IMG/VR virus record: IMGVR_UViG_2541047320_000011
Span: 62,001-126,000 of that record
Reading direction: 5' to 3' (one strand)
Length of the DNA stretch: 64,000 nucleotides
Origin: an uncultured virus (IMG/VR IMGVR_UViG_2541047320_000011)
Lineage: Duplodnaviria; Heunggongvirae; Uroviricota; Caudoviricetes
The position numbers were made by a program, and so were the translations under genes. Positions within the stretch are counted from its first letter, which is position 1; each line of letters starts with the position of its first letter. Below, piece after piece: positions 3,790-57,538 of the stretch. The notes beneath the pieces were generated by a model. That model saw nothing but the letters and a program-made list of their open reading frames with translations. It was not told the origin of the DNA and made no database searches.

Positions 3790-3839
3790 TAAGATAAACT
3801 AAATAAAATTCAACTTTTAATATAAATGGAGGATTTGAA

Positions 3840-4202
3840 ATGGATAAATATTTAATTGGTTGTATAGGTAATTGCTTAAGAAATATAAAAATAATAAAAA
3901 CTAGATTTTTTTTAATAGATAATAATAACATTGAAGATGTCACACTAAAGTTATGCAAAGGAGTAGAGCATATAGCACCATTTAGATATAAATATGGATT
4001 AGCAAATTATAGTTTTGGTTGTGGTTTATCTCATTATTTAGATACATATAATTTAAACACTGTAAATGGATTGGATTTAAATAATACACATTTAATAATG
4101 TTTACTTTAAATGATTTAAAAAATATAGTAGGGTGTAAAACTGTCTTTGATATAGATGTAGAAGAAAAACTATTAAACTATATAAAGAATTGTTACATAT
4201 GA
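3840..4202 (+). CDS. Hypothetical protein
   Basis: ORF with GGAGG SD, flanked by TAAAA-N6-TTTTA sites. Confidence 0.7.
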   Translation: MDKYLIGCIGNCLRNIKIIKTRFFLIDNNNIEDVTLKLCKGVEHIAPFRYKYGLANYSFGCGLSHYLDTYNLNTVNGLDLNNTHLIMFTLNDLKNIVGCKTVFDIDVEEKLLNYIKNCYI

Positions 4203-4255
4203 AAATACAAGTACTTAAAATATTAATTTTAATATAAAATTAGGAGGGCGTAAAA

Positions 4256-4558
4256 ATGAAAAGAACATATAGAACAAAAGAGGAAACAATTGAATACTTT
4301 AGAATAATAGCATCTAGTTATAAGAAAGACGCAGATATAAATAATAATGAAGTAGCAAAGGGGCAAGTTGAAGCATGGGAGATGGCAGCGTTTGAACTGG
4401 AAAGAACCACTAAAACAAAAAATGAAATAGTTAAATATTTTAAACAATTAGAGTTTGAATACGAGAGATATGCATATAGAAACGAGGATGAAATAGCAAA
4501 AGGACAAGCTGAGGCATATGGATTGGTAGCGTTTCAGATAGAAAGAAATATGAAATAA
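4256..4558 (+). CDS. Hypothetical protein with two ~47-aa internal repeats
   Basis: EVAKGQVEAWEMAAFELER / EIAKGQAEAYGLVAFQIER. Confidence 0.75.
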   Translation: MKRTYRTKEETIEYFRIIASSYKKDADINNNEVAKGQVEAWEMAAFELERTTKTKNEIVKYFKQLEFEYERYAYRNEDEIAKGQAEAYGLVAFQIERNMK

Positions 4559-4606
4559 CAACATTTAAATACAAATTGGAGGTTTACAAAATGACTATAG
4601 AAGAAT

Positions 4607-4861
4607 GTGAAAATAGAAGATGTTATGAGAAATGCTATAGAGTGGGCTAATGGTAATGAATGTATGGAATTATATATACTAGATATATTTATTATTAGTG
4701 AATACTTAGACATAAAAATACCAACTTGTTTTGAAAATAATTTTATTGCAACAAAAAATATAAATCAGATAACTACGACTGGAGCAGAAAAAACAATCTT
4801 TAAAATATTAGATAAGATTAAAATTAAATTATTAAAATGTAAGATGGAAAATTATTTATAA
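4607..4861 (+). CDS. Hypothetical protein (5' end uncertain)
   Basis: ORF; the SD-linked ATG at 4591 is out of frame. Confidence 0.5.
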   Translation: MKIEDVMRNAIEWANGNECMELYILDIFIISEYLDIKIPTCFENNFIATKNINQITTTGAEKTIFKILDKIKIKLLKCKMENYL

Positions 4862-4930
4862 TACTTAAAGACAAATGGAGCATTGAAGTGTATAAAAGAA
4901 TGATTTTAATATAAATTAGGAGGGTCAAAG

Positions 4931-5242
4931 ATGAAGGAATCTAAAAGTAAATTAAATATAATAATTGAGTTAATTAAGAAAATAATGTTAGAAGAAGATT
5001 ATGTAAATATAAATGAATATCTTTGTTTAGAAAAAACATGGAATGGAGAAACAAGCAATAGTGTTCTTATTGATTTGTATAATAACACTAATATATATGT
5101 AAAAACAAATGGTGATTATAAATATATTAGTATGGATAGTGCCAAAGATGGAGATTGGAAGGATTACGATATAAAAGACATTTATGAATATGAAGATACT
5201 ATAATTAAATATTTGGAAGATTATATAAATAGGAGTATTTAA
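4931..5242 (+). CDS. Hypothetical protein
   Basis: ORF with AGGAGG SD; stop codon is the TAA of a TAAAA-N6-TTTTA site. Confidence 0.7.
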   Translation: MKESKSKLNIIIELIKKIMLEEDYVNINEYLCLEKTWNGETSNSVLIDLYNNTNIYVKTNGDYKYISMDSAKDGDWKDYDIKDIYEYEDTIIKYLEDYINRSI

Positions 5243-5361
5243 AATTATATTTTTAATATGATATATGAGTTATCAAATCGCTATTGTTATAGCTATATTA
5301 TTATAATTCAAATGATAATGATAGTGATTTGATAAAAGGGTTTTAAAGATTATAAAAATCA

Positions 5362-5420
5362 AAAGGTATAAATACATTAAGATGATTTTTAAACAGCTTA
5401 TAGAGGCTTGTACGAGGTCA
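5362..5420 (+). repeat. 59-bp dispersed element, divergent copy
   Basis: Ungapped similarity to 35795-35853(-) and 61771-61829(+). Confidence 0.55.
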
Positions 5421-5446
5421 TAATTATAAACTAGGAGGATATAAAA

Positions 5447-6764: not shown

Positions 6765-8195
6765 ATGGAGCAGGAATTAAATCTAATACCATTTTTAGCG
6801 GAAGCATTATCAATTAACAAGAAGTGTTATAGTATTATAGATAAGTATTATAGTAAAGATAAATTAAAATACATGGATTTAGCCAAAGAGAGTGTTTTTT
6901 ACAATTCAAAGATTGCTGGTGAGGGAAGTATAATTCAAGAATATTATTTCAAAAAAGCATTAGGCATATTATCAAGTCAAGAAAATGAGACTATATTTGA
7001 AATATATAAATTTGGTTATAAAGTTGCATATAATTATGTAAATTCTATACAAATTTTTAAAGCAAGTAATTTTCTTAAAAAACTATTGAGTAAAGTTAAT
7101 GATTTTAGCGATGATGAATTAAATGGCAATATGTTAGTAGCAATTTCTTTATGTGGAGCATTAGAAAAAGAAGTTGATAGCTCAGATATTATATATAAAA
7201 AAATAATTGATGGATTATTTTTACGAAATGATAGTTATAGTAGAGAAGTATTATCTATAGACAATTTAGATAAAAAGTATAAAAAGATACTTAGTAAAAT
7301 TGAATTAAAGCTAAAATCACTGTACTTAAAAGAATATATACCAAGTTCTTATGTTTTGAATATAGATGCTACAAAAGGATATGAAGGAAATAATTTAACC
7401 TTTTTAGAGAAACAGATATTGGGACTAGATTATATATCTAATTTAGAAGGGATAACATTAATTTCTATTGTTGGAAAAGATATATTTAAATCTAAGCAAA
7501 TACAAGAATTAATTCTAGCATATTGTAATTTACAAGATAATATAGAAGATGAAAATAGCATAAATTATGAGGATTTATTTAGATTTATAATTCCAGCAAT
7601 TGATTTACGCTACTGGGCTAGAGAATATAAAAAAGCAAAGCAATTTTTCTTTAATAATTTTGATGAAGAATTAAAAGAATCTATAGAAGAAAAAGATATT
7701 GAATTAATTACTTTAAAAAAAGAAAATTCTTTATTAAGAGAAGAAAATAAAAACATAAAATTAGAATTGGAATTATTGCAAAAAGACAAACTTAGATTAG
7801 AAAATGAAATCAAAGCACAAATTACATCCAAAGAAGAATTGGTTCAATTAAGAAATTTTATGTTTAGCAAACAACAGGAATATATTGAAAATATTCCCAC
7901 TGATGAAAGAGATTTGAAAAACATAAAAGCGATAATTTTTGGAGGACATCCAAATTGGATTTTAAAAATGAAAGATAAATTAATTAACTTTGAATTTATA
8001 TCAGCAGAAACAATTAATTTTGATGTAAATATATTGAATAGTTATGAGTATGTTTTTATAAATACTAATTATGTAGGACATGCAATGTATTACAAAATTA
8101 TAGAAAATCTAAACGAAAATAATAAACTTAGATATATAAATAATATAAATATAGATAGAGCAATAAGAGATATAAAAGATGCTATTAAAATTTAA
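6765..8195 (+). CDS. Coiled-coil protein with C-terminal DUF2325-like domain
   Basis: Coiled coil followed by IIFGGHPNW...NYVGHAMYYKI. Confidence 0.6.
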   Translation: MEQELNLIPFLAEALSINKKCYSIIDKYYSKDKLKYMDLAKESVFYNSKIAGEGSIIQEYYFKKALGILSSQENETIFEIYKFGYKVAYNYVNSIQIFKASNFLKKLLSKVNDFSDDELNGNMLVAISLCGALEKEVDSSDIIYKKIIDGLFLRNDSYSREVLSIDNLDKKYKKILSKIELKLKSLYLKEYIPSSYVLNIDATKGYEGNNLTFLEKQILGLDYISNLEGITLISIVGKDIFKSKQIQELILAYCNLQDNIEDENSINYEDLFRFIIPAIDLRYWAREYKKAKQFFFNNFDEELKESIEEKDIELITLKKENSLLREENKNIKLELELLQKDKLRLENEIKAQITSKEELVQLRNFMFSKQQEYIENIPTDERDLKNIKAIIFGGHPNWILKMKDKLINFEFISAETINFDVNILNSYEYVFINTNYVGHAMYYKIIENLNENNKLRYINNINIDRAIRDIKDAIKI

Positions 8196-8205
8196 GGAGC
8201 GTATT

Positions 8206-8574
8206 ATGATTGATATAGATACAAATAAAAGAATAAAAGAAATAAGGGAAGATATAAATTTATCACAACAAAAATTCGGAGAAAAGCTTGGTGTGAGTAG
8301 AGATGTTATAAGTAATATAGAAAATAATAGAGTAGAAGTTAAAACAGTATTTATTACTCATATGTGTGAGGTTTTTAGTGTTAATCAAGTGTGGTTAGAA
8401 ACTGGTGAGGGGAGGAAGTTTATTGAACAAGAATGTGATATTGTTTTAGGAGAAGTTTTTGCTAATATAACTGTATCTAAAAATGAAAATTTAAAAGAAT
8501 TGATTATAAATATTTCTAAATTAAATGATACATATATAAATAATTTAAATGAGATTGTAAAAGGTCTAATTTAA
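8206..8574 (+). CDS. XRE-family regulator (1 of 4 tandem)
   Basis: RIKEIRE..LSQQKFGEKLGVSRDVISNIE...WLETGEG. Confidence 0.9.
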   Translation: MIDIDTNKRIKEIREDINLSQQKFGEKLGVSRDVISNIENNRVEVKTVFITHMCEVFSVNQVWLETGEGRKFIEQECDIVLGEVFANITVSKNENLKELIINISKLNDTYINNLNEIVKGLI

Positions 8575-8593
8575 ATAGTGGGAGGTATTATAA

Positions 8594-8974
8594 TTGTCTG
8601 ATGAAACTATAAGCACAAGAATTAGAAAGATAAGGAAAGATGCTAATTTATCTCAACCAGCTTTTGGGGAAAAACTAAGCGTCAGTAAAGATGTTATAAG
8701 TAATATAGAGTATGATAGGGTTGAACCCAAACCTTTACTTATTAATCATTTATGTAGTGTATTTAATATTAATAAGGAATGGCTTATAAATGGTACAGGT
8801 GATATGTATGTTTCTGTAGAAGATGATATTTATTCAACTTTAGGCGAAGTATTCTATAAGATAGCTAGTTCAAAGGATGAAAATTTAAAAGAGCTAATAA
8901 TTAACATTTCTAAATTAGATGCTACATACATAGCGTCTTTGAATGAGATTGTAAAAAGGTCAATACAGAGGTGA
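8594..8974 (+). CDS. XRE-family regulator (2 of 4)
   Basis: LSQPAFGEKLSVSKDVISNIE...INKEWLINGTGDM. Confidence 0.9.
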   Translation: MSDETISTRIRKIRKDANLSQPAFGEKLSVSKDVISNIEYDRVEPKPLLINHLCSVFNINKEWLINGTGDMYVSVEDDIYSTLGEVFYKIASSKDENLKELIINISKLDATYIASLNEIVKRSIQR

Positions 8975-8979
8975 TATTA

Positions 8980-9330
8980 ATGTGCGATATAGGCAAGAGA
9001 ATTAAAATCTTAATAGAAAATGAAAAAATAAAACAAGTTGAGTTTGCAAACAAGATAAAAGTTGACCCATCTTATATATCTAAGTTTCTATCAGATAAAT
9101 CTAAAGTAATACCTAGTGATAGATTAATAGATGATATTTGTAGTACATTCAATGTTAATAAAGAATGGCTTAAAAATGGAGATGGAGAAATGTACATAGA
9201 AAATAAGTATAGTAGGAATATTTCAGAAGCGACTGACTTATTAATGGAACTTTCAATTGAATTTCAAGAATGTGCGATTAATCAAATTAAAGAATTAATA
9301 AAATTGCAACAATCATTAAAAAGTAGGTGA
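8980..9330 (+). CDS. XRE-family regulator (3 of 4)
   Basis: KQVEFANKIKVDPSYISK...VNKEWLKNGDGEM. Confidence 0.88.
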   Translation: MCDIGKRIKILIENEKIKQVEFANKIKVDPSYISKFLSDKSKVIPSDRLIDDICSTFNVNKEWLKNGDGEMYIENKYSRNISEATDLLMELSIEFQECAINQIKELIKLQQSLKSR

Positions 9331-9335
9331 GGTTA

Positions 9336-9833
9336 ATGTCTGAAAAAGATGGAATTATAAGATTAAATTTAATAGAATTAAGAAAGATTTTAAAACTTAC
9401 ACAAGAACAAATGTCTGCATCATTAAAAATAAGTCGCTCAAATTATGGAAATATTGAAACTGGCAAAGTAGGGTTGACTGAACGTGTTAAATCAGATATT
9501 TGTGATATATATAATGTTAATAAAAAATGGTTAGAGATTGGAAGTGGTGAAGTTTTTGTAGAGATGTCTGAAAAGGACAAAATTAAACAAGTTGAAAGTA
9601 AACTTAAAGAAGTAGATAGTAAACTACTTAATACAATACTTTTACTTACAAATATTTCAATTCCAAAAGATAAATTGAATGAAAAAGAGATTAACAGAAA
9701 TGAAAAATATATTGAACTGATAAACATATTTACACAACTTACACCAGATTTTCAGAATTATGCCTTACATCAAATAAAAGAATTACAAAAACTACAAATT
9801 TCATTTATTAAAGACGTTAAAAATGAAAAATAA
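9336..9833 (+). CDS. XRE-family regulator (4 of 4)
   Basis: LTQEQMSASLKISRSNYGNIETG...VNKKWLEIGSGEV. Confidence 0.88.
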   Translation: MSEKDGIIRLNLIELRKILKLTQEQMSASLKISRSNYGNIETGKVGLTERVKSDICDIYNVNKKWLEIGSGEVFVEMSEKDKIKQVESKLKEVDSKLLNTILLLTNISIPKDKLNEKEINRNEKYIELINIFTQLTPDFQNYALHQIKELQKLQISFIKDVKNEK

Positions 9834-10191: not shown

Positions 10192-10300
10192 ATATAATTT
10201 AATTAATTTTTAAAAGTTATAAAGCCTAAAAAACTGTATTATTAAGATGCAGTTTTTTAATATAAAAGACATTAAAATAACCATTTTAAAAGGAGAAAAA

Positions 10301-11164: not shown

Positions 11165-11271
11165 AAATAACAATAAAATCGTAGTTTTTAATTTAATATC
11201 TTATCAAAAAAAATTTTTATATTTTGGTAAGATTAATTAAACTAAATAAAATATAAAATTACTTAAAAATA

Positions 11272-11300
11272 TTGACAACTAAATAAAATAGGTATATGAT
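11272..11300 (+). promoter_or_regulatory. Sigma-A promoter with AACTAAATAAAAT box in the spacer
   Basis: TTGACA(11272)-N17-TATGAT(11295); boxes at 11240 and 11277. Confidence 0.75.
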
Positions 11301-11350
11301 ATATATATAATATAAAAAAGAATTTAGCTCTATAAAAGGATGTGATACAT

Positions 11351-12340
11351 ATGACTGGAATAGAAGCTCTGGAAGAATTTTTATTAAATTTAAAGTTATA
11401 TAATGATAGAGATGAGAAAACAATAAAAGCATATAGAACTGATGTAAAAGAAGGCATAAGGTATTTATTTAAAAAAGAAAATTGTACAATGGAAGAACTT
11501 GATAAAGTGCTTTTTACAGATATACAAGAAAAGTGGCTTATCTTATTAAAAGAAAAAGGAATGAAAGCAGCTACAATAAACAGAAAAAGAGCATCATTTA
11601 AAGCTTATTGTGCTTTCCTTAAAGCTAAAGGTAAAATTAAAGATAATCCAGTTAATTACGTTAAAAAATTACAAGATAAAATTCAATCTGAGAAAAAGAT
11701 ATTAACTAAAGATGAAATTATTAAGCTATTAGAAACTATGGATAAAGTATGTGTTGATAATAAAAATTATAATACTTATAGAGATATGCTAATTATAAAT
11801 ATACTTGTGTTTACTGGTATGAGAATACATGAAGTAGAAAAAATGAATATAAAAGATATAAATTTCTCGAATGGAGATTTTGAAGTAATAGGAAAAAGAA
11901 AATTAAAAAGAAATGTGGGTTTAAATGAACAAGTATTAAAAATGTATAGAGATTTTTTATACTTTAGAAATCAAATTGAAGGTAAAAAAGATAATAAAGA
12001 TAGCAACAATGCTTTGTTCTTATCCAGAAATAATTCAAGATTAACAACAAGGTCGATTGAAAGACTTGTAGAAAAAGCATTGAAGTTAGCTGGATTGCCC
12101 CATGTGACGCCTCATAGCTTTAAACATAGTTTTGTTTCAATAATGTCTGAAACAGATGCAAAATTAGAAGATATAGGAAAGTTTACAGGTAATAAAAATA
12201 TACAGACAATGTATAAACATTACAAGCATCAGGACAAAGAGAGTAATACAAAAAAAATGACTGAAGGTAATCCATTATATCAGTCAATTATTAAAAATAG
12301 GAGGTTGTCTTTAGTTAATAAAAAATATAGACAAATATAG
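11351..12340 (+). CDS. Tyrosine recombinase (XerC/D-like) with atypical active-site residues
   Basis: SAM-like N-terminus, TGMRIHE, IGKRK, TPHSFKHSF, GNKNIQTMYKHY. Confidence 0.88.
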   Translation: MTGIEALEEFLLNLKLYNDRDEKTIKAYRTDVKEGIRYLFKKENCTMEELDKVLFTDIQEKWLILLKEKGMKAATINRKRASFKAYCAFLKAKGKIKDNPVNYVKKLQDKIQSEKKILTKDEIIKLLETMDKVCVDNKNYNTYRDMLIINILVFTGMRIHEVEKMNIKDINFSNGDFEVIGKRKLKRNVGLNEQVLKMYRDFLYFRNQIEGKKDNKDSNNALFLSRNNSRLTTRSIERLVEKALKLAGLPHVTPHSFKHSFVSIMSETDAKLEDIGKFTGNKNIQTMYKHYKHQDKESNTKKMTEGNPLYQSIIKNRRLSLVNKKYRQI

Positions 12341-12537: not shown

Positions 12538-13431
12538 ATGGTTAATAAATTAGAAAGTACAATAAGAGAGGAAGAAGTAAGACGTAACAGAATAAATGGA
12601 TACTTAGAAGAGTTTATAACTAAAGCTAAAATAGATAAAATAAGTAATTTAAATGAACAAAATATAGATAGTTTTATAAAAGGAAGATTAATAGGAGAAT
12701 CTACTACAACTGTATATACTAATTTAAGAATTTTAAGAGAGATATTAAAAGAAAATAATTGTAATATTAGTATAGATACTAACAAATACACAGATATGAT
12801 AAAATTTAATGCCAATAAATATTTTACAAGAAATCAAATAAAAAATATATGTAGTGCATTTTTAAATGCTCAAGATAAATTTATAGTATATGCTCTCTTT
12901 GAGGGTATCATGGGAAAAGATTATATAGAATTAAGATATTTGAAAGTGTCAGATATAGCAAAAGATTATTCATATATAGACCTTCCAGACAGAAGATTTA
13001 TTTGTGATGATTATATGAAGGAAATATTAGAAGATGTTATTGTAGAAGATTATTATACTAAAAGCGAAATAAAAGGAAGTAGTAAAGAAACAGAATATAA
13101 ATTTAACATGGATTGTGAATATATAATAAAAACTAGACCTACCAAATTAACTGATAATGGTATGAAGGCTATTAGTAAGAATGGAATACAAAATAGGTTA
13201 AAAACTTTATCAGTAGCATTTTCAGATTTAGACATACATCTGACTGGTAAGACTTTACAAAAATCAGGGATAATATACGATATGTATGAACAAGAAGCTT
13301 ATGAGTGTGTATCTTGGTCTATCCCTGAAATAAAAAAATATTTAGAGTTAAAGTGCTTGAAAGGTGATGCAAATAATATATATAAAGCATATCATCAGAG
13401 GTATCATAATTTAAAGACTAATCGAGAATAA
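12538..13431 (+). CDS. Degenerate recombinase-fold protein, MrpR/YopR(SroF)-like phage repressor
   Basis: NAQDKFIVYALFEGIMG..ELRYLKVSDI (box I lacking Arg), KTLQKSG in place of HxxR; adjacent to a recombinase. Confidence 0.65.
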   Translation: MVNKLESTIREEEVRRNRINGYLEEFITKAKIDKISNLNEQNIDSFIKGRLIGESTTTVYTNLRILREILKENNCNISIDTNKYTDMIKFNANKYFTRNQIKNICSAFLNAQDKFIVYALFEGIMGKDYIELRYLKVSDIAKDYSYIDLPDRRFICDDYMKEILEDVIVEDYYTKSEIKGSSKETEYKFNMDCEYIIKTRPTKLTDNGMKAISKNGIQNRLKTLSVAFSDLDIHLTGKTLQKSGIIYDMYEQEAYECVSWSIPEIKKYLELKCLKGDANNIYKAYHQRYHNLKTNRE

Positions 13432-15096: not shown

Positions 15097-15302
15097 TAAG
15101 AATAATGAAGTTAAAATCAAGATTTTAATAGAAAAGGAGTGATTAAAAATGAAGAAAAATCCAATAAGAATTAAAAAATGTGACTGCGGTGGAGATATAT
15201 ATGAACTTAATACACAATTAGGTACTATGTATCAATGTAAAAGCTGTGGGGAGATGTATAGATAGTGCTAAAATATTAGCTAAAGAAGATGAGGTGAAGT
15301 CA

Positions 15303-18676: not shown

Positions 18677-18729
18677 TTAAAACAAATGTTTTAATGTGAT
18701 TTTACCTAGTAGATACAAGGAGGTTTTTA

Positions 18730-25385: not shown

Positions 25386-25862
25386 GTGATACATATGGGA
25401 TTAGATTTAGGTTTTTATTCAGTAAAAACAAAAGTTACAGATTTAGATATTTATTTAAATAAAACAAGAGGTGAGAAATATAAGGAATTGAATAATGATG
25501 AAGAAGAGTTTTATAAGTTTGAAGAATTATTAGATATTGATATATCTTTAGAAGATTGGTCAGTTATTCGTATGATATATAAAGCCAAATGGGAAAAAGG
25601 TTATGAAAGTTATGAAGATGAAGCCATACTTATTACAAAGGAAGATTTGGAAGATTATATAATTCCTTTTCTTAAACAAAAAGATATAAATTCTAAGATA
25701 TACAATAAGGATAAAGAGTATTATTATAAAAATGATAAAAAAGTAACAGTTGATGATAGGTATACACAGGAGTTTTGGGATTTAGTATTAAAAGAATTTC
25801 AAAAAATGTTAAACATAATTGATTTTGAAAAACATAGTTTAATTATTATGTATTGGTATTAA
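25386..25862 (+). CDS. Hypothetical protein
   Basis: MGLD N-terminus after GAGGTG SD. Confidence 0.7.
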   Translation: MIHMGLDLGFYSVKTKVTDLDIYLNKTRGEKYKELNNDEEEFYKFEELLDIDISLEDWSVIRMIYKAKWEKGYESYEDEAILITKEDLEDYIIPFLKQKDINSKIYNKDKEYYYKNDKKVTVDDRYTQEFWDLVLKEFQKMLNIIDFEKHSLIIMYWY

Positions 25863-25897
25863 GATAATAATTTTAATTTATTTGGAGGTTTATAATA

Positions 25898-29276: not shown

Positions 29277-29316
29277 AGAGTATATAAATAAAATCTTAAT
29301 TTTATAAGAAAGGTAA

Positions 29317-29733: not shown

Positions 29734-29771
29734 TTAAAATGATACTTTTAATGTAAAGGAGATTGTAAATT

Positions 29772-30092: not shown

Positions 30093-30127
30093 TTAAAAGC
30101 ATCATTTAATAATAGGAGGTAAATAAA

Positions 30128-31163: not shown

Positions 31164-31164
31164 A

Positions 31165-32636: not shown

Positions 32637-32771
32637 TTGATTTTAAATATCGCTGCAATTTTTAATTTAGTCTGTATGATAGGTAATTACTTGCAAGGCA
32701 GTACTAATGGGATGTTACTTAATGGATTTTGTCTTGTAGCATTATTATTAGTTAATAATGACTTAGATTAA
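32637..32771 (+). CDS. Small hydrophobic protein (44 aa)
   Basis: TTG after AAGGAG; stop is the TAA of the site at 32769. Confidence 0.5.
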   Translation: MILNIAAIFNLVCMIGNYLQGSTNGMLLNGFCLVALLLVNNDLD

Positions 32772-32963
32772 AAGTATTATTTTAAGGAGATTAAAAGATG
32801 AAAATAACAATATCAATTCAAGAAGCAATGGATATTATTAAACAGCATTATAAGGATAAAGGAATTGAAATCAAAGACTTAAGTTTTAATTTAGAAAAAA
32901 CGGGAATGGTTAGAAATATTAAATTTAAGGGAGAACTAATACTTAAATAGGAGGTATTTATAT

Positions 32964-33864: not shown

Positions 33865-34070
33865 AAATTAAATATGTGGTAATTGAAGGATATATTACAT
33901 CAAAAAATGATGGCCAAAAACATTTTATAAATTTTAGGGATTTAATTAAATTATATGGAGTGTCGCCAAGAGAATGTATAAGAGCAAAGGATTTTTACGA
34001 GAGAGATGGTTTAGACCTTAAAGATATAAAATTTCTATATCCAAGGAATGATGGAAAATATAAACTATAA
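33861..34070 (+). CDS. Hypothetical protein
   Basis: GGAGG SD; stop is the TAA of the site at 34068. Confidence 0.65.
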   Translation: MKIKYVVIEGYITSKNDGQKHFINFRDLIKLYGVSPRECIRAKDFYERDGLDLKDIKFLYPRNDGKYKL

Positions 34071-34192
34071 AATCATGGTTTTAAATGATTATAAGGTATC
34101 AATTCTAAATGACCAAACAAATCTAAAAGTTTAATTCCATATAAAACAATTCAAAGAAGCCAATCAATATTCAATTCAAAGGAGATGGTATT

Positions 34193-35758
34193 ATAAGAGA
34201 GTTAAAATTACTAAGTTTATTTTCGGGAATAGGAGCATTTGAAAAAGCACTAGGAAATATTAATGTAAGGTATAAATTAATAAATTATTGTGAAATTAAT
34301 AAATATGCAAGTAAATCATATTCAGTTATACATGATGTAAGTGAAGATATGAATTTAGGTGATATAACAAAAATTGATATATCTAAGCTTTCACGAGATG
34401 TAGATATAATTACTCATGGAAGTCCATGCACGAACTATTCTGTGGCTGGAAAAGGAGATGGAGGGGATAAAGGAAGTGGGACTGCTTCTTCTCTAATGTG
34501 GAATACGGTTGAAATAGTTAAGTATATTAAACCAAAATATGTAGTTTGGGAAAATGTAAAAAATGTACTAAGTAAAAAACATAAACATAATTTTGAACAA
34601 TATATAAATGATTTAAAAGGATTGGGATACACTTCATATTATCAAATCTTAAATGCAAAAGATTTTGGAATACCTCAAAATCGAGAAAGAATTTTCTGTA
34701 TATCAATACTAGGAGAACATACTCCTTATGAATTTCCAATAGGTTTTACATTACAATATAGATTAAGAGATTTTCTTGAAGAAGAAGTTGAAGAAAAATA
34801 TTATTTATCAAAAGAAATACAAGATAGATTTACTAAATTTCCAACAGATAGATTAAACAATGAGGATTTAAAGGTTATTGGGACTACTACGCCAAATCCA
34901 TACAATGATAATGGAGATTTAATATTTGATAAATGTACATCTGCATGGTGTTATAATCCAGATAAATGCATATCAACCCTATCTGCAAGAGACTATAAAC
35001 AACCCAAACAAATTATAGATAAAATAATTAAAGAAGGTAATGTATCTCAACATCCTAAATCTCAAGCAGGTCAAGTTATATCAGATGAAGGATTATCTAT
35101 GACTTTATGCAGTGGTACACATGGATATGCTATGGGGTATATTAAAGAAAAGAATGTTTCTAATGGAGCTATAAGAGGAAGATATAATGAACAAGGTGAT
35201 ATTGAACAGAAATTAGAAATAAGAAAAGATGAATGTTCTAATACAATAACTACAGTTCAAAAAGATAATGTTATTATTGAGCCTAGAATAAATGAAGTAG
35301 GAGAATTAGATATAAAGGGATATGATTTATTAAAAAGAGTTTATGGGGCTGATGGAATATCTCCAACATTAAATGCTATGACTGGTGGGAATAGGCAACC
35401 TAAGATATTAGAAGAAAAAGCAATTAAAGAGGGATATTTTAAATATCCAAATAGCAACAAAGCCCATCAAAGTAATACTTGTTATAATCCTAAAGGATTA
35501 AGTCCATCTTTAGATACTTGTCAAGGTGGAAATAGGCAGACTAAAATAGTGGAAAATTTAGATAATAATTTTAGGATAAGAAAACTTACACCCAAAGAAT
35601 GCTGGAGATTAATGGGTTTTGATGATGAAGATATAGATAAATGTATAAGAGCTAAATTGTCCAATACTCAGCTCTATAAACAAGCAGGTAATTCAATCTG
35701 TGTACCAGTCTTAGAAGAAATATTCAAAAAATTATTACAGGAATACATATATAATTAA
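34193..35758 (+). CDS. C5-cytosine DNA methyltransferase with a long multi-TRD variable region; non-canonical ATA/ATT start
   Basis: In-frame SLFSGIGAFE upstream of ORF 34349; GSPC, WENVKN, PQNRERIF, KLTPKECWRLMGF, QAGNSI. Confidence 0.92.
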   Translation: MRELKLLSLFSGIGAFEKALGNINVRYKLINYCEINKYASKSYSVIHDVSEDMNLGDITKIDISKLSRDVDIITHGSPCTNYSVAGKGDGGDKGSGTASSLMWNTVEIVKYIKPKYVVWENVKNVLSKKHKHNFEQYINDLKGLGYTSYYQILNAKDFGIPQNRERIFCISILGEHTPYEFPIGFTLQYRLRDFLEEEVEEKYYLSKEIQDRFTKFPTDRLNNEDLKVIGTTTPNPYNDNGDLIFDKCTSAWCYNPDKCISTLSARDYKQPKQIIDKIIKEGNVSQHPKSQAGQVISDEGLSMTLCSGTHGYAMGYIKEKNVSNGAIRGRYNEQGDIEQKLEIRKDECSNTITTVQKDNVIIEPRINEVGELDIKGYDLLKRVYGADGISPTLNAMTGGNRQPKILEEKAIKEGYFKYPNSNKAHQSNTCYNPKGLSPSLDTCQGGNRQTKIVENLDNNFRIRKLTPKECWRLMGFDDEDIDKCIRAKLSNTQLYKQAGNSICVPVLEEIFKKLLQEYIYN

Positions 35759-35794
35759 ATGATTATAAAATGTCAGTTTTAAATTAAAAAAATA

Positions 35795-38078: not shown

Positions 38079-38282
38079 ATTTAGGGGGAGTTAGAATGAC
38101 TTGTAAACTTAAAGATATATGTGAAAATAAGAATACTGATTGTGATTATTGTTGTTATAATCCAAATGCATATTTAGAGGATGCTTTTGAATGGAATGGA
38201 GAAGGAAAAGAACCATCTAGTGAAGAATTGAATGATGCTCTTGCAGAATAAATAAGTATTTAAAATGATAATTTTAATATGA

Positions 38283-38855: not shown

Positions 38856-38866
38856 GAGTTGATAAA

Positions 38867-39532: not shown

Positions 39533-39724
39533 TCATATTAAAAGGAGAGGTTAAATGAAATTAGGAATACCACAAATTTTAGTAATAATAATATACATTA
39601 TGCAATTAGGAGCGTCTTTAGCTAATAATGGAAAGGTAAAAGAAATGAAAATAAGTTTTGGAGTATCTACAATTTCAAAGCTAATAATTTTTGGTTTATT
39701 GTATTGGGGAGGATTTTTTAGTTA

Positions 39725-40690: not shown

Positions 40691-40730
40691 TTAATATTTA
40701 TAAACTAAATAAAATTTAAAGGAGAGTTTT

Positions 40731-41306
40731 ATGGAAGAACAAATAGCTAACATAGAGAGTGAAGTAAAACAATTAAAAGATGTAATAAGAAAAATGGTTG
40801 GAGATTTAAAAGAAAATGAGAATAAAGATTCATTAATACCATTTCGCAGAAGTGAAAATATAAAAGATTTATTAGTAAGTTTAGTTGATTTTCAAAAAGA
40901 GGTAGAAAGTATTGAAAAGAGTTCTAATAATCCATTTTATAATAGCAAATATGCAAATTTAGATGATATTCTAATAACAATAAGACCAATATTAGCAAAA
41001 TTTGATTTATGTATAACTCAATTTCCCATTTCTGGTGGAAACAATTCAGTATCAATTAAAACTGTATTATGGCATTCTAGTGGTCAGTTTATGGAGTCCG
41101 ATAGTGTACCTATAAAACCGAGTAAATTAGATATTCAAGGATATGGAGCAACAGAAACATATAGTAAGCGTTATGCACTAGGTGGCTTACTTCAATTATC
41201 ATTTTGCGAGGATGATGATGGCAATTCTCAAGTTGAACCTCCTAATAAAAAAAATACATCTCAAAATATTCAAAGTACCCAACCTAAGCGTTCTGGAAGA
41301 ATATAG
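40731..41306 (+). CDS. ERF-family ssDNA-annealing recombinase
   Basis: NPFYNSKYANLDDI, HSSGQF, TYSKRYAL, EDDDGN. Confidence 0.9.
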   Translation: MEEQIANIESEVKQLKDVIRKMVGDLKENENKDSLIPFRRSENIKDLLVSLVDFQKEVESIEKSSNNPFYNSKYANLDDILITIRPILAKFDLCITQFPISGGNNSVSIKTVLWHSSGQFMESDSVPIKPSKLDIQGYGATETYSKRYALGGLLQLSFCEDDDGNSQVEPPNKKNTSQNIQSTQPKRSGRI

Positions 41307-49725: not shown

Positions 49726-50026
49726 ATGGGATTAAGAATAGAATTAAATAATTTAAAAGATTGGACTAAAGAATATGCTAAATCATTCAAAGCATGTTTT
49801 ACTATAACATATTCAAAAAATATTTAGAAAAATTTGCAAATGATAGATTTCAAAATATCGTAGATGAACAAGAGTTAGATTTGACTAATAAAGAATTTAA
49901 AAATTATAAAAAATATTTGTAAAAACCTTTATTGATACTATGATTGAATTAATAGAAGATGAAGCAAAAAATTTAAAAAATAAGAAAAAGACAGAGGAAG
50001 AATCTAAGAAGAAAAAAAGTAATTAA
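49726..50026 (+). pseudogene. Degraded hypothetical gene (two frameshifts)
   Basis: SD plus ATG; coding-like sequence switches frame twice; final TAA is the site at 50024. Confidence 0.45.
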
Positions 50027-50141
50027 AATCACTATTTTAATAAGATTTAAAACTTAGGATTATGTATAAAATAAGGATGTTAGAGTAAATTATAAACTAA
50101 ATAAAAAACAGATAAATTGTTTAAAGTCTATTTTTATTCAG

Positions 50142-54215: not shown

Positions 54216-54273
54216 GGAGGTGATTTTTGACTAAAGAAGAATTTATGAAATAAAATATGTGTTTTAATATGAA

Positions 54274-54822
54274 TTGGAGGTAAAATTTATGTTGAATTTA
54301 TTAATAAAAGATATACATGGTGGAGATACGATATATTGTATAAAAGATATTGAATGTTATAAAAAAGGAGAATTTTATACAGTAGGTACTGGAGAATATA
54401 TAAGTCAATTTTATAAAATGAGAGGTGGGACTACAATAGGGTATTGTTTCATTCGTGTGCCAACTGAAGATGAGCTAGAAAATGAATTTATTCAATTGAA
54501 GTTTTTAAAAGATGATTTATCTAAAGATAATATTGCAGAAATAAATTGTAAAAATTTTCAAGAATTTAAAGATAAGATAGCATCTTGTGATTCAATATGT
54601 TTTTTACATAATAAAGATTTCAATTTTAGTGATTTGGATGATAATTTCATGAAAGATGTAATAATAGAATTTGGAGAAATAATAGATTGGGGAAGAAGAG
54701 TAAATCAATTGATTAATTTCACTAATTTATATATTAGGTCAGAAGATAAGCTTAAATCAATGACTAAAGAAGAAATAGAAGATGAATTAGGATATAAAAT
54801 TAAAATAGCTTCTAAACAATAA
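54274..54822 (+). CDS. Hypothetical protein (start probably ATG 54289)
   Basis: C-terminal MTKEEIEDELGYKIKI. Confidence 0.7.
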   Translation: MEVKFMLNLLIKDIHGGDTIYCIKDIECYKKGEFYTVGTGEYISQFYKMRGGTTIGYCFIRVPTEDELENEFIQLKFLKDDLSKDNIAEINCKNFQEFKDKIASCDSICFLHNKDFNFSDLDDNFMKDVIIEFGEIIDWGRRVNQLINFTNLYIRSEDKLKSMTKEEIEDELGYKIKIASKQ

Positions 54823-54839
54823 AGCGAGGTGATATTATA

Positions 54840-55646
54840 TTGAATATCTTCAATAAAAAATATGGTAGAAATGTAAAAATAACAGAGGCAGAACCTCCTT
54901 CTCCTCCTCCCAAACAACCAAACTTCGATATGGATAATATACAATATGATAAAGAAATGAAAAGAAAGCTATTAGAAATGGAAAAAATAAAAATAGACTC
55001 AGAAATGAAAAAAAATAGTGAAGAATGGATTTGGATTGAAGGATATAAGGGTACAGATAGAGATATGAAATGTAGAAACTTTCAGTATGAACTAAATAAA
55101 ACTTATAGTGTTGAAGAAATACATAGAGGAAATATAAATATATATGACTATGGATTCCATTTGTGTTTAGATTTAAAAGATGTTTTCAGATGTTATAATT
55201 TAAATTTAAGTAATAGATTTTTCAAAGTAAAAGCCTTAGTTAGAAGAGAGGATAAATATAAGTATGAGATGGAACAATCTTTTTCATCAATACGTCCAGG
55301 AGCAAAATATAGCATAGGTGCTAAAGAAATAATACTTTTTAGAGAATTAACTTTTGAAGAATTAAAACAAGATATCCAAGACAAGTTTCCTAAAATAAAC
55401 AATGAACTGGAATGGAATCTTATCAAAAAATTAGGTATTTATAAATATTACAATAAAATATTTATAAATAAAATGAAAGAAATTGGTTATTCAGATATTT
55501 TTTCACAGGTTTTATTTGATGAATATCATCCGTTAATAAATCCACATAGAACTATGAATATACTTGACAAGGCAATTGCATATTCAAAAGAAAATTTATC
55601 TAAAGATATGATAATATATTTGCTTATGAAAGATATAAGAAAGTAA
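54840..55646 (+). CDS. Phage hypothetical protein
   Basis: GYKGTDRDMKCRNFQYE...GFHLC. Confidence 0.75.
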   Translation: MNIFNKKYGRNVKITEAEPPSPPPKQPNFDMDNIQYDKEMKRKLLEMEKIKIDSEMKKNSEEWIWIEGYKGTDRDMKCRNFQYELNKTYSVEEIHRGNINIYDYGFHLCLDLKDVFRCYNLNLSNRFFKVKALVRREDKYKYEMEQSFSSIRPGAKYSIGAKEIILFRELTFEELKQDIQDKFPKINNELEWNLIKKLGIYKYYNKIFINKMKEIGYSDIFSQVLFDEYHPLINPHRTMNILDKAIAYSKENLSKDMIIYLLMKDIRK

Positions 55647-55669
55647 CATCTTAAAAGAATGGAGATAAT

Positions 55670-56113
55670 ATGGACAAAATAAATAAGATAGATTTGATTA
55701 AGTTAAAAGAAATGAACATATATGATAATTATCAATTAAAAAAAATAGCAAGTAAAATGATATTACATCTAAGATATGAAATAATGGATTTTTGTGGTTG
55801 TGGTTCTCCTGATGATATATCTTTTATGATAAAAGGAGTACTGACTGCAATACAAAATAAAGAGAAAAATTGTAATTTAGAATACACAGAAAGATGTTAC
55901 ATATTTGAAATAGAGTTTAATAATGTTTGTGGAATAATTGGTAGTAAAAATAATTTGATACAAGAATTTATATTAAATGCTTTAAATTCATATGGGTTGT
56001 TAGAACATGGTAGTAGTATTTGGGGGTCATGGCTATCTGATTATGGTAAACAAATATTATGTGCTTTTGAAATAGTTGGTGACTGTATTTTAGATGTTAG
56101 CTATTTAGATTAA
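55670..56113 (+). CDS. Hypothetical protein
   Basis: FCGCGSP...LEHGSSIWGSWL. Confidence 0.7.
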   Translation: MDKINKIDLIKLKEMNIYDNYQLKKIASKMILHLRYEIMDFCGCGSPDDISFMIKGVLTAIQNKEKNCNLEYTERCYIFEIEFNNVCGIIGSKNNLIQEFILNALNSYGLLEHGSSIWGSWLSDYGKQILCAFEIVGDCILDVSYLD

Positions 56114-56142
56114 AAAGTTAGTTTTAATAGGAGGTGGTAATT

Positions 56143-56799
56143 ATTAAATATGTAATGAGTGACCTACATGGTATGTATGATAAATTCATTTCAATGTTAG
56201 AGAAAATCAATTTCAATTCAAATGACCATTTATATATTTTAGGAGATGTATTAGATAGAGGGGATAAATCTTTAGAGATTATAGATTATATAAGAAAGTA
56301 TAAGAATATAACTCTTCTAAAAGGTAATCATGAGTTAATGTTTCAAGAAAGTTATACAGATGTAAATAGTAGTTTTCTTTGGTTTTATAATGGAGGTAAA
56401 GATACATTTTATGATTTAGGAATGAAGTCTTATGAATATAAAGAAAATTTTTATAAATATATTAAGAACCTTCCATATTTAGAGATAATAGATAATTTTA
56501 TATTAGTTCATGCTGGACTATACCTTCCAAATAACTATGAAAATCTCAGTATAGAGCAAATAATTGAGTTACAAGAAGAAGATATTTGTGTGTGGGATAG
56601 AGCAATATTAAATACTAATAAACATATAAAAGGATACACAATTATTATTGGTCATACACCAACTCAAAACATTAAAGATTATGAAAAGGCTGAAATATAT
56701 AAACAAGAAGGAATTATAGATATAGACTGTGGAGCATGTTTTGATAATGGTAAGTTAGCTTGTTTAAGATTAGATGATATGAAAGAATTTTATATTTAG
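56143..56799 (+). CDS. Metallophosphoesterase (phage Ser/Thr phosphatase-like); probable ATT start
   Basis: SDLHG, GDVLDRG, GNHE, VHAG, GHTP, IDCGA. Confidence 0.92.
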   Translation: MKYVMSDLHGMYDKFISMLEKINFNSNDHLYILGDVLDRGDKSLEIIDYIRKYKNITLLKGNHELMFQESYTDVNSSFLWFYNGGKDTFYDLGMKSYEYKENFYKYIKNLPYLEIIDNFILVHAGLYLPNNYENLSIEQIIELQEEDICVWDRAILNTNKHIKGYTIIIGHTPTQNIKDYEKAEIYKQEGIIDIDCGACFDNGKLACLRLDDMKEFYI

Positions 56800-56808
56800 G
56801 AGGTATAT

Positions 56809-57063
56809 ATGATACAAGAAGTCAGACAAGAAATGCAATTAAAAAATGGTTTAGTTTTATATACAGGAGATATTATAAATGTAAAATATAAAACTATAGA
56901 AGATATAAAAGAACAATTTTGTAAGGGAAGATTAAAAAATGTAGATGAGCAATTTATACAACTAGATACAAGTGAAAAATATAATGCAACAGAAAAAACA
57001 ATCTATGCATGGGATTTAATAGATATAAAAAAGGTGAGTGATGAAAATGAAAAAAATAATTAA
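56809..57063 (+). CDS. Hypothetical protein
   Basis: AGGAGG SD. Confidence 0.65.
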   Translation: MIQEVRQEMQLKNGLVLYTGDIINVKYKTIEDIKEQFCKGRLKNVDEQFIQLDTSEKYNATEKTIYAWDLIDIKKVSDENEKNN

Positions 57064-57382
57064 TAGTAAATATAGAGCCTTGTATTTGATAATATTTTTT
57101 CTAATATTTAATTTTGGATATAGTTTATATTTTGGAAGAAATACTGAAATTGGATTCTATTCTAATCCATCCTGTGTGGAAGAATATATATTAGATATTA
57201 TAGTATTGATAGGAATATTCTTCTCAGTCATGTTAGCTAGTTTTGATATTACAAATAATTTTATTAATAATTTTAATAAAACAACAGCAGAAGAAAGTAT
57301 TGAAATAAATGCTACAATTTCTAAAGAATTATATAAAGAAATTAAAGATGAAATAATGAAAGAAAATAGCATTAAAAATTAA
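57038..57382 (+). CDS. Two-TM membrane protein
   Basis: Two hydrophobic segments. Confidence 0.65.
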   Translation: MMKMKKIINSKYRALYLIIFFLIFNFGYSLYFGRNTEIGFYSNPSCVEEYILDIIVLIGIFFSVMLASFDITNNFINNFNKTTAEESIEINATISKELYKEIKDEIMKENSIKN

Positions 57383-57538
57383 TTAAAACAGCTAGATTTC
57401 AACGATGAGAGTGTTTGGTGCAAAAATGATGACAAAAGTAATCTGTAAAGAAAAGATTATAACACAAGGAAAACAAGGGTTTTAGAAAATCTAAATCACA
57501 ATAAAATGTGAATTTTAATAGGATTGGAGAGTGTTTAA

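Follow-up and report, generated by a model that had tools for sequence, protein, structure and literature searches.

The stretch of DNA analysed here, which we call the window, is 64,000 nt long and comprises bases 62001–126000 of one 135,822-bp contig (G000) from an uncultured virus. In the parts that are shared, it is 95–98% identical to the Clostridioides phages LIBA6276 and LIBA2945 (the latter also labelled B2945 in our comparisons), which belong to a kind described, in the available text of PMC5786514, as phiCD5763-type siphophages that are circular, 132–134 kb in size and 'big plasmidial'. The window covers the early arm of a C. difficile phage-plasmid similar to phiCD5763. This early/replication arm has a GC content of 25%, its genes lie nearly all on the + strand, and they include functions in defence and regulation (ArdA, Bro-N, four tandem XRE regulators, methyltransferases (MTases) and DndB), recombination (a XerC-like recombinase, ERF, RuvC and an integrase), RNA repair and processing (Tpt1, RlaP and PTH2), and replication and nucleotide metabolism (DNA ligase, DnaB, primase, RecJ, DnaE, NrdDG, Gmk, dUTPase and MazG). 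Along it, about every 3 kb and in direct orientation, recurs a 16-bp dyad, TAAAA-N6-TTTTA, which we call the box and which typically follows a stop codon and precedes the ribosome-binding site of the next gene. An earlier reading of the window (the original prediction) took the boxes for recombination sites of an integron-like system of gene cassettes and named a regulator site as the alternative; the evidence presented here favours a regulatory box that is exploited by recombination over a dedicated system of that type.

The motif is genuine as well as specific and conserved. The window holds 18 copies, whereas 100 dinucleotide shuffles of it give a mean of 2.36 (standard deviation 1.53, maximum 8), and when the spacer is varied from N0 to N12 the counts are 3, 7, 5, 2, 5, 1, 18, 5, 2, 3, 2, 3 and 3, so that N6 gives 18 and all other spacings 1–7. 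Outside the + strand open reading frames (ORFs) of at least 60 aa, which leaves 10,788 bases (~10.8 kb), there are 16 boxes where a first-order Markov model gives a mean of 0.66 (maximum 5 in 1000 simulations), and the profile of this non-ORF DNA from N2 to N11 (2, 2, 2, 0, 16, 3, 0, 0, 0, 0) is again enriched at N6 alone. The expected preference for a 6-bp spacer in intergenic rather than coding DNA, measured against shuffled controls, is thereby borne out: only N6 is enriched, and mostly in non-ORF DNA. TAAAA at N6 also came first, with its 18 copies, in an unbiased scan of all 5-mer inverted pairs at spacings of 2–10. The 17 exact intergenic copies reported in the original prediction all lie where it placed them and carry the spacers that it gave, its one-mismatch copies at 11174, 25860, 30094 and 62730 are all present, and its observation that spacers never repeat extends to all 18 exact copies. 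The additional exact match, at 2582..2597 (no strand assigned), lies inside ORF 1971–2666 without a leader and is probably due to chance. The whole 135.8-kb genome holds 23 exact copies, 18 of them in the arm covered by the window, and the five outside it are in coding DNA or lack the downstream extension described next.

When extended, the box reaches ~22–24 bp and reads (a/t)T-TAAAAT-N5-TTTTAATAKRA, and an alignment of 51 unique copies from eight genomes gives (a/t)T-TAAAAT-N4-(a/g)-TTTTA-A-T-A-(T/G)-(G/A)-A. A Shine–Dalgarno sequence (SD) and a start codon follow within 30 nt in 51 of 81 unique box contexts, and among these 51 the leader carries A at +16 in 48, T at +17 in 35, A at +18 in 35 and A at +21 in 47, which confirms that a leader is shared after the box; the commonest distance from core to SD is 8 nt (14/51). 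On the other side, by our reading of the coordinates, the upstream ORF ends 0–15 nt before the box in 12 of 17 copies. The box itself provides the TAA stop of ORFs at 5240, 25860, 34068 and 56111 (93–158 aa) and of a 44-aa ORF at 32769, whereas at 50024 and 54251, for which the same had been claimed, frames of only 28 aa and 8 aa end. In six cases the next start is 34 to ~265 nt away, and the box is tied to the upstream stop. Single genes are bracketed by boxes on both sides as previously described, and the replication block is indeed free of exact copies between 38.3 and 50.0 kb, but a one-mismatch copy at 40716–40731 (spacer GGAGAG) lies over the SD and start of erf. This copy, the sole one within the replication block, is exact in LIBA6276 and G002.

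We compared the window closely with seven relatives, giving eight close genomes in all, and then counted boxes more widely against the reversed pattern, a T-run, N6 and an A-run, as a control. Five further complete close relatives (G001–G005, of which G005 is essentially LIBA6276) hold 19–25 boxes each against 6–9 control matches. A phiCD211-like plasmid (NZ_CP020426), which represents a second group of big C. difficile phages and whose DnaE is 32% identical, has 26 boxes against 6, with 16 in 44 kb of its early arm and, once more, only N6 enriched. Among uncultured relatives, whose DnaE is 56–66% identical (so that DnaE identity over the motif-bearing relatives spans 32–66%), box and control counts are 60 and 4 in G006, 25 and 4 in G009, 13 and 3 in G007 and 6 and 1 in G008, the last two records being fragments that are 54% and 21% complete. 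G013 has 9 against 0, and G010, G011, G012 and G014 are at background (5 against 4 in G011, 4 against 2 in G012); in the loci examined of the motif-poor relatives, no alternative palindrome stood out. A 4.4-Mb C. difficile genome that carries a related plasmid shows no enrichment, with 192 boxes against 202 reversed controls. As the host genome is at control level, the box is a feature of the phages and not of the host, and a host transcription-factor site was rejected on the same ground. A limited literature search found no description of the motif, and the available text of the phiCD5763 paper contains none of the strings 'promoter', 'palindrom' and 'intergenic'.

The motif-rich G006 adds information about orientation and symmetry. 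There, 48 of 60 boxes are intergenic, they lie beside genes of both strands, and the SD lies towards the gene in 23 cases, with no intergenic copy showing it on the opposite side. The bases that flank the arms covary: the window group has T at −1 and A at +16, while G006 has A at −1 in 39/48 and T at +16 in 29/48.

Scans of the window for consensus sigma-70 promoters and for terminators gave counts at shuffle level, and a separate terminator scan returned a single site, at 59474–59495. It is possible, though we consider it unlikely, that the box is a phage-specific promoter or promoter core used by host RNA polymerase together with a phage factor; transcription would start anew for each following gene, and the repeated promoters would act as recombination junctions in the manner of the promoter-early stem-loops (PeSLs) discussed below. 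The box is always upstream of, and oriented with, a gene start, its left half TAAAAT fits the TAnnnT of −10 elements, TTGACT lies 18 bp upstream of the 54251 box, and the boxes at 10273 and 1569 follow terminator-like hairpins; along 60 kb there are hardly any intrinsic terminators or strong sigma-A promoters. The phage also encodes a 433-aa GerE-domain protein that is labelled 'sigma factor' in PHROGs (phrog_5767, E=1e-117) and has weak region-4 matches, and it is this label that keeps a promoter among the explanations considered here. However, the 51 aligned contexts contain no conserved −35 at any spacing, position 5, which would be the invariant T of a −10 element, is T in 14/18 copies here and in 3/10 in the G006 locus, and what is conserved is the dyad, not a hexamer. 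Sigma region 4, moreover, binds as a monomer and not to a palindrome. A start 7 nt after TAAAAT would leave a leader of 0–15 nt, and with a −10 element in TAATAT transcription would start inside the SD. The missing −35 and the variable final T of the −10, especially in G006, led us to reject a canonical sigma-A promoter.

Because most copies lie 0–11 nt from the SD, always on the sense side, and overlap stop codons, the element could instead act in the mRNA. It would then be an AU-rich stretch immediately 5' of the SD that enhances translation by offering ribosome standby or S1 binding, or a target at which a phage endoribonuclease or RNA-binding protein processes or tunes the long polycistronic early transcripts. 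The flank covariation (T/A in one group, A/T in the other) would also keep a base pair, and the phages encode RNA-repair and processing proteins (Tpt1, RlaP and PTH2, with RtcB in relatives). Yet the hairpin is unstable alone: the 5-bp arm stem has a mean free energy of +0.6 kcal/mol, the best folds mostly fall between 0 and −2.5, and the one-mismatch copies are uncompensated, on which grounds a stable RNA or DNA hairpin, or a terminator, was discarded. The six distant boxes tied to an upstream stop fit an RNA element poorly, and an enhancer would need no exact dyad at exactly N6. We regard action in the mRNA as highly improbable.

The comparison with relatives shows where cassettes have been exchanged. 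Homology to the seven relatives breaks off at 105 positions, of which 83 fall in gene junctions, and such breakpoints are carried by 13 of 16 junctions with a box compared with 36 of 86 without (odds ratio 6.0, p=0.005). Tightly packed junctions break rarely (7/39). Two gap-matched comparisons temper the association, and the first weighs against the explanation that we favour: among gaps of at least 20 bp, 13/16 box junctions and 29/47 box-free junctions are broken (p=0.22), and among gaps of 20–80 bp the figures are 8/10 and 8/20 (p=0.058). The proposal that boxes punctuate the accessory cassettes therefore stands in part, in that relatives differ by whole box-bounded genes and 13/16 box junctions are broken. 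At base level, homology starts at −1 to −17 relative to the box start at 5240, 15112, 18678, 35766, 54251 and 56111, and ends at +17 to +42 at 3804, 4216, 29735, 32769 and 54251. Since the limits of homology fall on either side of the box, the spacer travels with either neighbour. Six slots (TTCAAC, TATTAA, GAATGA, TCTTAA, TATGTG and AGTTAG) have kept their position and spacer while one or both neighbours were replaced, and orthologous slots with both flanks conserved share their spacer in 180 of 210 pairwise comparisons between genomes; within a genome no spacer recurs, and two inferred deletions joined unlike spacers.

The individual boxes, all on the + strand, illustrate this behaviour. Box 3804..3819 (spacer TTCAAC), with an SD 8 nt downstream and the gene 3840–4202, is unchanged both in LIBA6276, where the right flank is another, and in G001 and G003, where the left flank is. 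At 4216..4231 (TATTAA; gene 4256–4558) the right-hand cassette is replaced in B2945, G002 and G004, with the break after +21, and at 4893..4908 (GAATGA; gene 4931–5242) the spacer is kept in the same three genomes although both flanks differ. Box 5240..5255 (TTATAT) ends ORF 4931–5242, and homology to all seven relatives starts at −2. Box 10273..10288 (TAACCA) has an SD 1 nt downstream and a probable start at 10301; at 15112..15127 (TCAAGA; start 15149) homology to G001, G003 and G004 starts at −1; and box 18678..18693 (CAAATG) precedes the DNA ligase gene 18730–20013. The spacer of 29289..29304 (TCTTAA; gene 29317–29733) is kept with other flanks in G001–G004, and at 29735..29750 (TGATAC; MazG-like gene 29772–30092) homology to these four stops at +17. 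At 32769..32784 (GTATTA), where an SD follows immediately, homology to LIBA6276, B2945 and G001 stops at +25 to +35. Boxes 34068..34083 (TCATGG; TAA of ORF 33789–34070) and 35766..35781 (TGTCAG) form the left and right borders of a methyltransferase cassette, and the latter is also the left edge of a ~89%-identity phiCD211-like module. Box 38261..38276 (TGATAA) precedes the gene 38283–38855. From 118 nt downstream of 50024..50039 (TCACTA) lie a TTGAAA-17-TATAAT sequence and a DndB-like gene (50197–51336). Around 54251..54266 (TATGTG; gene 54274–54822) the left flank is replaced in LIBA6276, G001 and G002 and the right flank in B2945 and G004. At 56111..56126 (AGTTAG; TAA of ORF 55670–56113, followed by a phosphatase gene at 56134) homology to LIBA6276 starts at −2, and 57502..57517 (TGTGAA), ahead of the guanylate kinase gene at 57539, is missing in six relatives, in which homology starts at the start codon.

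One-mismatch boxes are found at 11174..11189, exact in LIBA6276 and the phiCD211-like plasmid, at 25860..25875 (TAA of ORF 25386–25862; PTH2 gene at 25898), at 30094..30109 (gene 30128–30592) and, as a weaker candidate, at 1569..1584 in the gap after the ArdA gene. The 11174 box lies upstream of a promoter-like TTGACA-17-TATGAT (11272–11300) and of a pair of recombinase-like and MrpR-like genes. At two slots the spacer is replaced elsewhere by its exact reverse complement: CAAATG at 18678 becomes CATTTG in G001, G002, G004 and the phiCD211-like plasmid (the comparison restricted to conserved flanks paired the window with G002 only), and TGATAA at 38261 becomes TTATCA in LIBA6276 and the phiCD211-like plasmid. 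These flips resemble the outcome of template switching on the dyad or of a pair of symmetric substitutions.

The joints left by past events are clearest at the methyltransferase locus. The C5 cytosine methyltransferase cassette (34084..35765, + strand; gene 34349–35758) is absent from all seven relatives, and the locus exists in three alleles: box(CATGG)-cassette-box(GTCAG) in the window, two boxes 8 bp apart in G003, G004 and the phiCD211-like plasmid, and one box in five genomes. On either side of the cassette stands a 14-bp direct repeat, TTAAATGATTATAA, which spans the inter-box linker and lies outside both cores; in the one-box allele the joint falls within the left arm. No near-identical copy that could be the source of the cassette was present in the phage collection, the best match having 68% identity over 27% of the query. 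A second case concerns a gene, Z, that with the same leader stands behind the TTCAAC box in LIBA6276 and behind the GAATGA box in LIBA2945 and G002; on sequence comparison this arrangement is a deletion whose joint would lie somewhere in TTTTAATATAA..GGAGG. At both places (the methyltransferase locus and the TTCAAC/GAATGA slots), deletion between two boxes leaves one chimeric box. The joints use short identities of 8–20 bp, and unlike spacers are joined, TTCAAC with GAATGA and CATGG with GTCAG.

Inverted arms around a 6-bp spacer are nonetheless the geometry that suggested a tyrosine recombinase, and we considered whether the box is the core site of a site-specific system that moves SD+ORF cassettes. 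In addition to its geometry, this explanation can point to three tyrosine recombinases and one recombinase-fold protein in the genome, to the six spacers that stay at their slots while neighbours differ, to the breakpoints at 13/16 box junctions, and to the existence of single-box, double-box and box-cassette-box alleles. However, only 5–7 bp per arm are conserved, compared with 11–13 bp in dif, lox and att cores, the methyltransferase joint lies in the 14-bp linker repeat outside both cores, and 36/86 box-free junctions also break, the difference fading to p=0.22 once gaps are controlled for. The crossovers predicted to fall inside the 6-bp spacer are, in the aligned relatives, spread from −17 to +42 with a further joint in the linker. 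Differing spacers block recombination between sites of canonical tyrosine recombinases, and the deletions seen here joined unlike ones. A fixed place before the SD, on the gene side on both strands, would likewise be unexpected of such a site. Taken together, we find a dedicated recombination site very unlikely.

Among the enzymes, one counts in favour of such a system: the integrase at 60620..61732 (+ strand) is catalytically canonical (R..HxxRH..GH..Y), its nearest solved relatives are Int proteins of the Tn1549/Tn916 type, and it has its own promoter-like sequence, TGGTATAAT. The XerC-like or YopP-like tyrosine recombinase (11342..12340, + strand) has Lys at Arg-II and Asn at His-III; it reads HSFKH and GN in place of the canonical HxxRH and GH, SPbeta YopP, encoded beside MrpR, also has HSFK, and the product may be another protein of recombinase fold whose catalysis is altered or lost. 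Against the integron-integrase profile TIGR02249, which has a cutoff of 265 bits, the three tyrosine recombinases score 44.6, 67.0 and 29.8 bits. Neither of the two drivers originally put forward (11351–12340 and 60620–61732) thus reaches the integron cutoff, and the first carries the Lys and Asn substitutions. Nor does the parallel with Tn916 hold. Targets of that type have the order T-run, 6 variable bp, A-run, while the box has an A-run followed by a T-run on both strands; the reversed pattern is at background, with 6–9 per genome and 202 in the host, and a Tn916-type target was accordingly rejected.

With integrons, the boxes share promoterless SD+ORF cassettes, imperfectly conserved palindromic sites and cassettes that differ between relatives. 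attC sites, by comparison, measure 57–141 bp; they recombine in folded, single-stranded form, and the IntI-type integrase that they require lies beside attI and Pc. An attC-type array next to intI, attI and Pc is not present here; the 16-bp dyads are spread over 3.8–57.5 kb, that is, over 54 kb of an essential phage arm, with no IntI and with variable crossovers. A dedicated integron-like system is therefore not what these joints describe: crossovers vary, unlike spacers are joined and there is no integron-type integrase. The likeness to heterospecific lox and FRT sites and to Xer dif lies in inverted arms that flank a 6–8 bp spacer deciding the pairing, and non-repeating spacers would on that model prevent intragenomic recombination; their arms, though, are 11–13 bp long and their recombinases intact, compared with 5–7 bp per arm and joined unlike spacers here. 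An elaboration of this idea would make the boxes addressable slots, at which recombinase-fold proteins pair only boxes of the same spacer and thereby exchange cassettes in register between co-infecting phage-plasmids, with the YopP-like enzyme, the canonical integrase or both as the enzymes and the MrpR-like protein as a non-catalytic partner. We see only a very slim chance that this is so; if true, it would be a natural form of recombinase-mediated cassette exchange that leaves the early arm unscrambled, with regulation and recombination sharing one site.

A closer precedent for the joints is provided by the PeSLs of the T4-type phages RB49 and phi1, described as mobile regulatory units in the available text of PMC2839356. 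There, too, a repeated intergenic unit runs from the upstream stop codon to the downstream SD and flanks variable ORFans, a cassette that two units enclose in one phage is represented in its relative by a single chimeric unit, and recombination is proposed to occur in the AT-rich part (PMC2839356). By this analogy, the box joints behave as PeSLs do and not as site-specific recombinase sites. The units differ in make-up: PeSLs, as that text presents them, are ~100 bp long with a sigma-70 consensus promoter and a G/C-rich terminator hairpin, whereas the unit here is ~22–35 bp with no recognisable −35/−10 and no stable hairpin. Mini-circles are also shown for PeSLs, while exchange of box cassettes is known from sequence comparison. 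A candidate agent for such short-homology recombination between boxes is the ERF-family single-strand annealing protein encoded at 40731..41306 (+ strand).

The remaining question is what binds the box, and here the best candidate is encoded in the window itself. The gene at 12538..13431 (+ strand) specifies a 297-aa protein of the MrpR/YopR/SroF family, with a tyrosine-recombinase fold that lacks the catalytic Arg and His residues. It has no Pfam or NCBIfam match and only an 'integrase' match among PHROGs. However, a profile built with four homologues matches MrpR (PDB 8A0A, E=4.9e-41) and YopR (E=3e-40) over the full length, and hhalign against SPbeta YopR gives 99.6% probability, with an identity to MrpR, YopR and SroF of only ~18–26%. 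An AlphaFold model (predicted local distance difference test score 73, from a six-sequence alignment) finds SroF of phi3T, YopR and MrpR as its seven best Foldseek matches in the PDB (E 3e-8 to 4e-7), with XerA and Cre ranking lower. Substitutions affect Arg-I, His-II and Arg-II: FEGIMGKD stands in place of the TG.R..E box, and LTGKTLQKSG aligns with LTPNTIVRSG of MrpR, with K and Q/K at His-II and Arg-II. The predicted tyrosine-recombinase geometry thus keeps some truth in that the best candidate binder has that fold, but crossovers do not occur at fixed positions of the spacer. A box precedes the operon with the MrpR-like gene in both groups of big phages: in the window this is the box at 11174, and in the phiCD211-like plasmid it stands 110 nt ahead of the gene. 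A search of the genome collection with the protein alone returned one locus, on a C. difficile plasmid.

MrpR is the master repressor of SPbeta, a protein of tyrosine-recombinase fold whose recombinase function is lost; chromatin affinity purification sequencing (ChAP-seq) gave ten intergenic peaks, all inside the SPbeta prophage and carrying the 15-bp SPBRE, according to the available text of PMC10516654. SroF of phi3T, in the available text of a recent preprint, acts as a monomer that clamps an AT-rich box of 26 bp and reads 24 of these, with its core-binding (CB) domain over the central 6 bp, and has many sites across the phage genome (bioRxiv 10.1101/2025.11.27.690993). We reconstructed SPBRE from the SPbeta sequence alone and found 7 intergenic core copies in 50 kb, of which those at yonX, yopM and yopV lie 1–5 nt before the SD and that before aimR sits ahead of the aimR promoter. 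By our reading, its consensus is a weak dyad, ATACA-N7-TGTAT, with 6 of 8 symmetric positions. As SPbeta boxes stand before the SD at several genes, the layout matches: a ~22-bp box and then an SD, at many junctions of a long early arm. The two systems resemble each other further in that both belong to temperate Firmicutes siphophages of large size (~130 kb) whose small early genes form long arrays, use a phage-only AT-rich box of 15–26 bp repeated at many intergenic sites, and encode a recombinase-fold protein without catalytic residues, with a second, YopP-like recombinase gene nearby. In both, a box precedes the repressor operon, that of SPbeta standing before yopM of yopMNOPQR.

The differences are also considerable. 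The box sequences are unrelated, and a perfect 5-bp dyad with a free 6-bp centre contrasts with the 24 of 26 bp read by SroF. Copies number 17–25 here (60 in G006), compared with the ~10 ChAP-seq peaks given for SPbeta in the text available. These phages infect Clostridioides and persist as plasmid prophages, the regions annotated show no arbitrium genes, and binding here is putative. Other observations weigh directly against the MrpR-like protein as the binder. MrpR-like genes also occur in G011 and G012, where the motif is weak or absent (5 against 4 and 4 against 2), as well as in G013 (9 against 0), and G007 and G008, motif-bearing fragments that are 54% and 21% complete, yielded none; with such a mismatched distribution, the phylogenetic profile does not single the protein out. 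A tblastn profile of 155 proteins against two motif-rich and two motif-poor relatives fits a CI-like XRE protein equally well. MrpR and SroF bind asymmetric boxes as monomers, while a perfect palindrome with symmetric flank covariation suggests a dimer, and most boxes are mid-operon with no recognisable sigma-A −35/−10 around them. Finally, a CI/Cro-like switch at the start of the arm, with other repeats and no box, means that a second repressor exists. Balancing these points, we hold the identification of the MrpR-like protein as the box binder to be plausible but tentative, slightly short of an even call, and another regulator in that role to be an unlikely but real prospect.

A different dimeric phage protein, such as a tandem XRE regulator, a BlaI-type repressor or an HU-like protein on phased A/T tracts, would have otherwise the same consequences. 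It would account for the perfect dyad, whose half-sites are spaced by one helical turn, for the lack of information in its centre and for the symmetric covariation of its flanks, and candidates are not scarce, with many helix-turn-helix (HTH) genes (8179–9833, 62249–62686 and others); the CI-like XRE protein is, by tblastn, present in the motif-rich G006 and G009 and not in G010 and G011. On the other hand, XRE matches at 28–31% identity between distant phages need not be orthologues, the CI-like switch region has other repeats and no box, and no precedent was retrieved for 20–60 dispersed sites, where the MrpR/SroF family has one. We rate such a binder as distinctly unlikely. A CI-like immunity operator was rejected, since the switch region holds other repeats and no box. 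In that region the CI-like XRE gene (G000 60997–61308, minus strand) faces a TTGACA-17-TATAAT promoter (region 61310–62036); the switch carries three (A/T)CTGCGT repeats, and a ~570-nt leader before the first early gene is long enough for an RNA element. At 8179–9833 lie four consecutive, partly overlapping XRE/HTH_19 genes (119–168 aa), in a region that is homologous in LIBA2945, where at least 3 HTH or regulator genes are annotated, and has other content in LIBA6276.

On the evidence above, we favour the explanation that the boxes are dispersed operators, probably of an MrpR/SroF-type repressor, which double as junctions for cassette exchange by short homology, and we judge it about evenly balanced whether this is correct as a whole. 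The regulator site named as the alternative in the original prediction thereby becomes the better-supported reading, as it has a precedent in MrpR and SroF and an MrpR-like homologue is encoded. Under this explanation, the bound protein would silence the ~20 genes or gene groups downstream while the prophage persists as a plasmid, either because a promoter overlapping the box is occluded or because read-through polymerase is blocked, as at stoperators. Stoperators are repressor sites of the Cluster A mycobacteriophages L5 and Bxb1 that halt elongating polymerase, according to the available text of PMC9283540. They are likewise numerous, lie in short intergenic gaps and are oriented with transcription, and so offer a mechanism for boxes that lack a promoter; they differ, as described there, in being asymmetric sites of ~13 bp bound by a monomeric two-domain HTH repressor, with sequence, protein and host all unrelated.

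The second role ascribed to the boxes in this favoured explanation would follow from their repetition. The box and its similar leader would be the only sequence common to otherwise unrelated cassettes, and as both recur in direct orientation in every related phage, short-homology recombination would take place at the boxes. Crossing over in the arm, the leader or the linker could then delete, insert or replace single genes, as PeSLs do in T4-type phages. We infer all three elements of this scheme, namely that a protein binds the box, that binding represses, and that homology drives the recombination.

An integrase-fold master repressor was recognised only in 2023–2025 and only in Bacillus SPbeta-like phages. 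A distant MrpR/SroF homologue is now found in 130-kb C. difficile phage-plasmids and uncultured relatives, together with a candidate operator in 17–60 copies per genome. If binding is confirmed, it would provide a first handle on how ~100 early genes of the big C. difficile phages are silenced and induced, and would show this class of repressor to be common among Firmicutes phages and to differ markedly in DNA specificity. The joints also provide a clean base-level example, outside the T4-like phages, of a repeated regulatory box that channels the gain, loss and replacement of single genes, and the genes exchanged at boxes include a DNA methyltransferase and candidate anti-defence genes.

Among the cassettes, candidates for counter-defence are ArdA (767–1480) and the orphan C5 methyltransferase (34349–35758), and a weak Tad2-like (anti-Thoeris) match at 31135–31410, below the Pfam cutoff, marks a further one. 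A larger module, 35781–39533, is common to six phiCD211-like plasmids at 87–90% identity, where replication genes are otherwise ~32% identical; it extends from the box at 35766 to the end of ORF 38867–39532 and points to an exchange between the two groups of big phages. An IS200/IS605-type element at 22946–25044, with a truncated Y1 transposase (23133–23387, 84 aa) and a TnpB-like ORF (23396–24844, 482 aa), is absent from LIBA6276, LIBA2945, G002 and G003, and its borders lie away from the boxes.

The neighbourhood of the MrpR-like gene shows two further regularities. Four paralogues of 112–122 aa (phrog_16601, 53–61% identical) are encoded at 13592–13930, 3442–3789, G000 28022–28360 and G000 31394–31762; the first of these (112 aa) is the next gene after the MrpR-like one, and two others immediately follow Bro-N genes, which are of antirepressor type. 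The position behind the MrpR-like gene recalls that of the small antirepressor Sar/YopT, encoded downstream of SroF in phi3T/SPbeta. In G009, G012 and G013 (loci L074, L075 and L076) the MrpR-like gene lies immediately downstream of a DGQHR/DndB-like gene (362–378 aa). The DndB-like gene of the window (50197–51336) is 37 kb from the MrpR-like gene and is preceded by a box and a sigma-A-like promoter.

Public RNA runs gave few reads from phages of this kind: three raw-read runs yielded 24, 65 and 55 partial, low-identity reads, and one run contained a 9.4-kb contig of a relative. Elsewhere on the contig, at G000 56270–56340 and 56400–56560, iteron-like repeats (TTGATAAGTTGTTAGTAAG..) and a long inverted repeat are situated between the sigma-like gene and a DnaD/replication-initiator-like gene, with a ParM-like actin gene adjoining, and this region (G000 56270–56560) is the probable plasmid origin and partition region.

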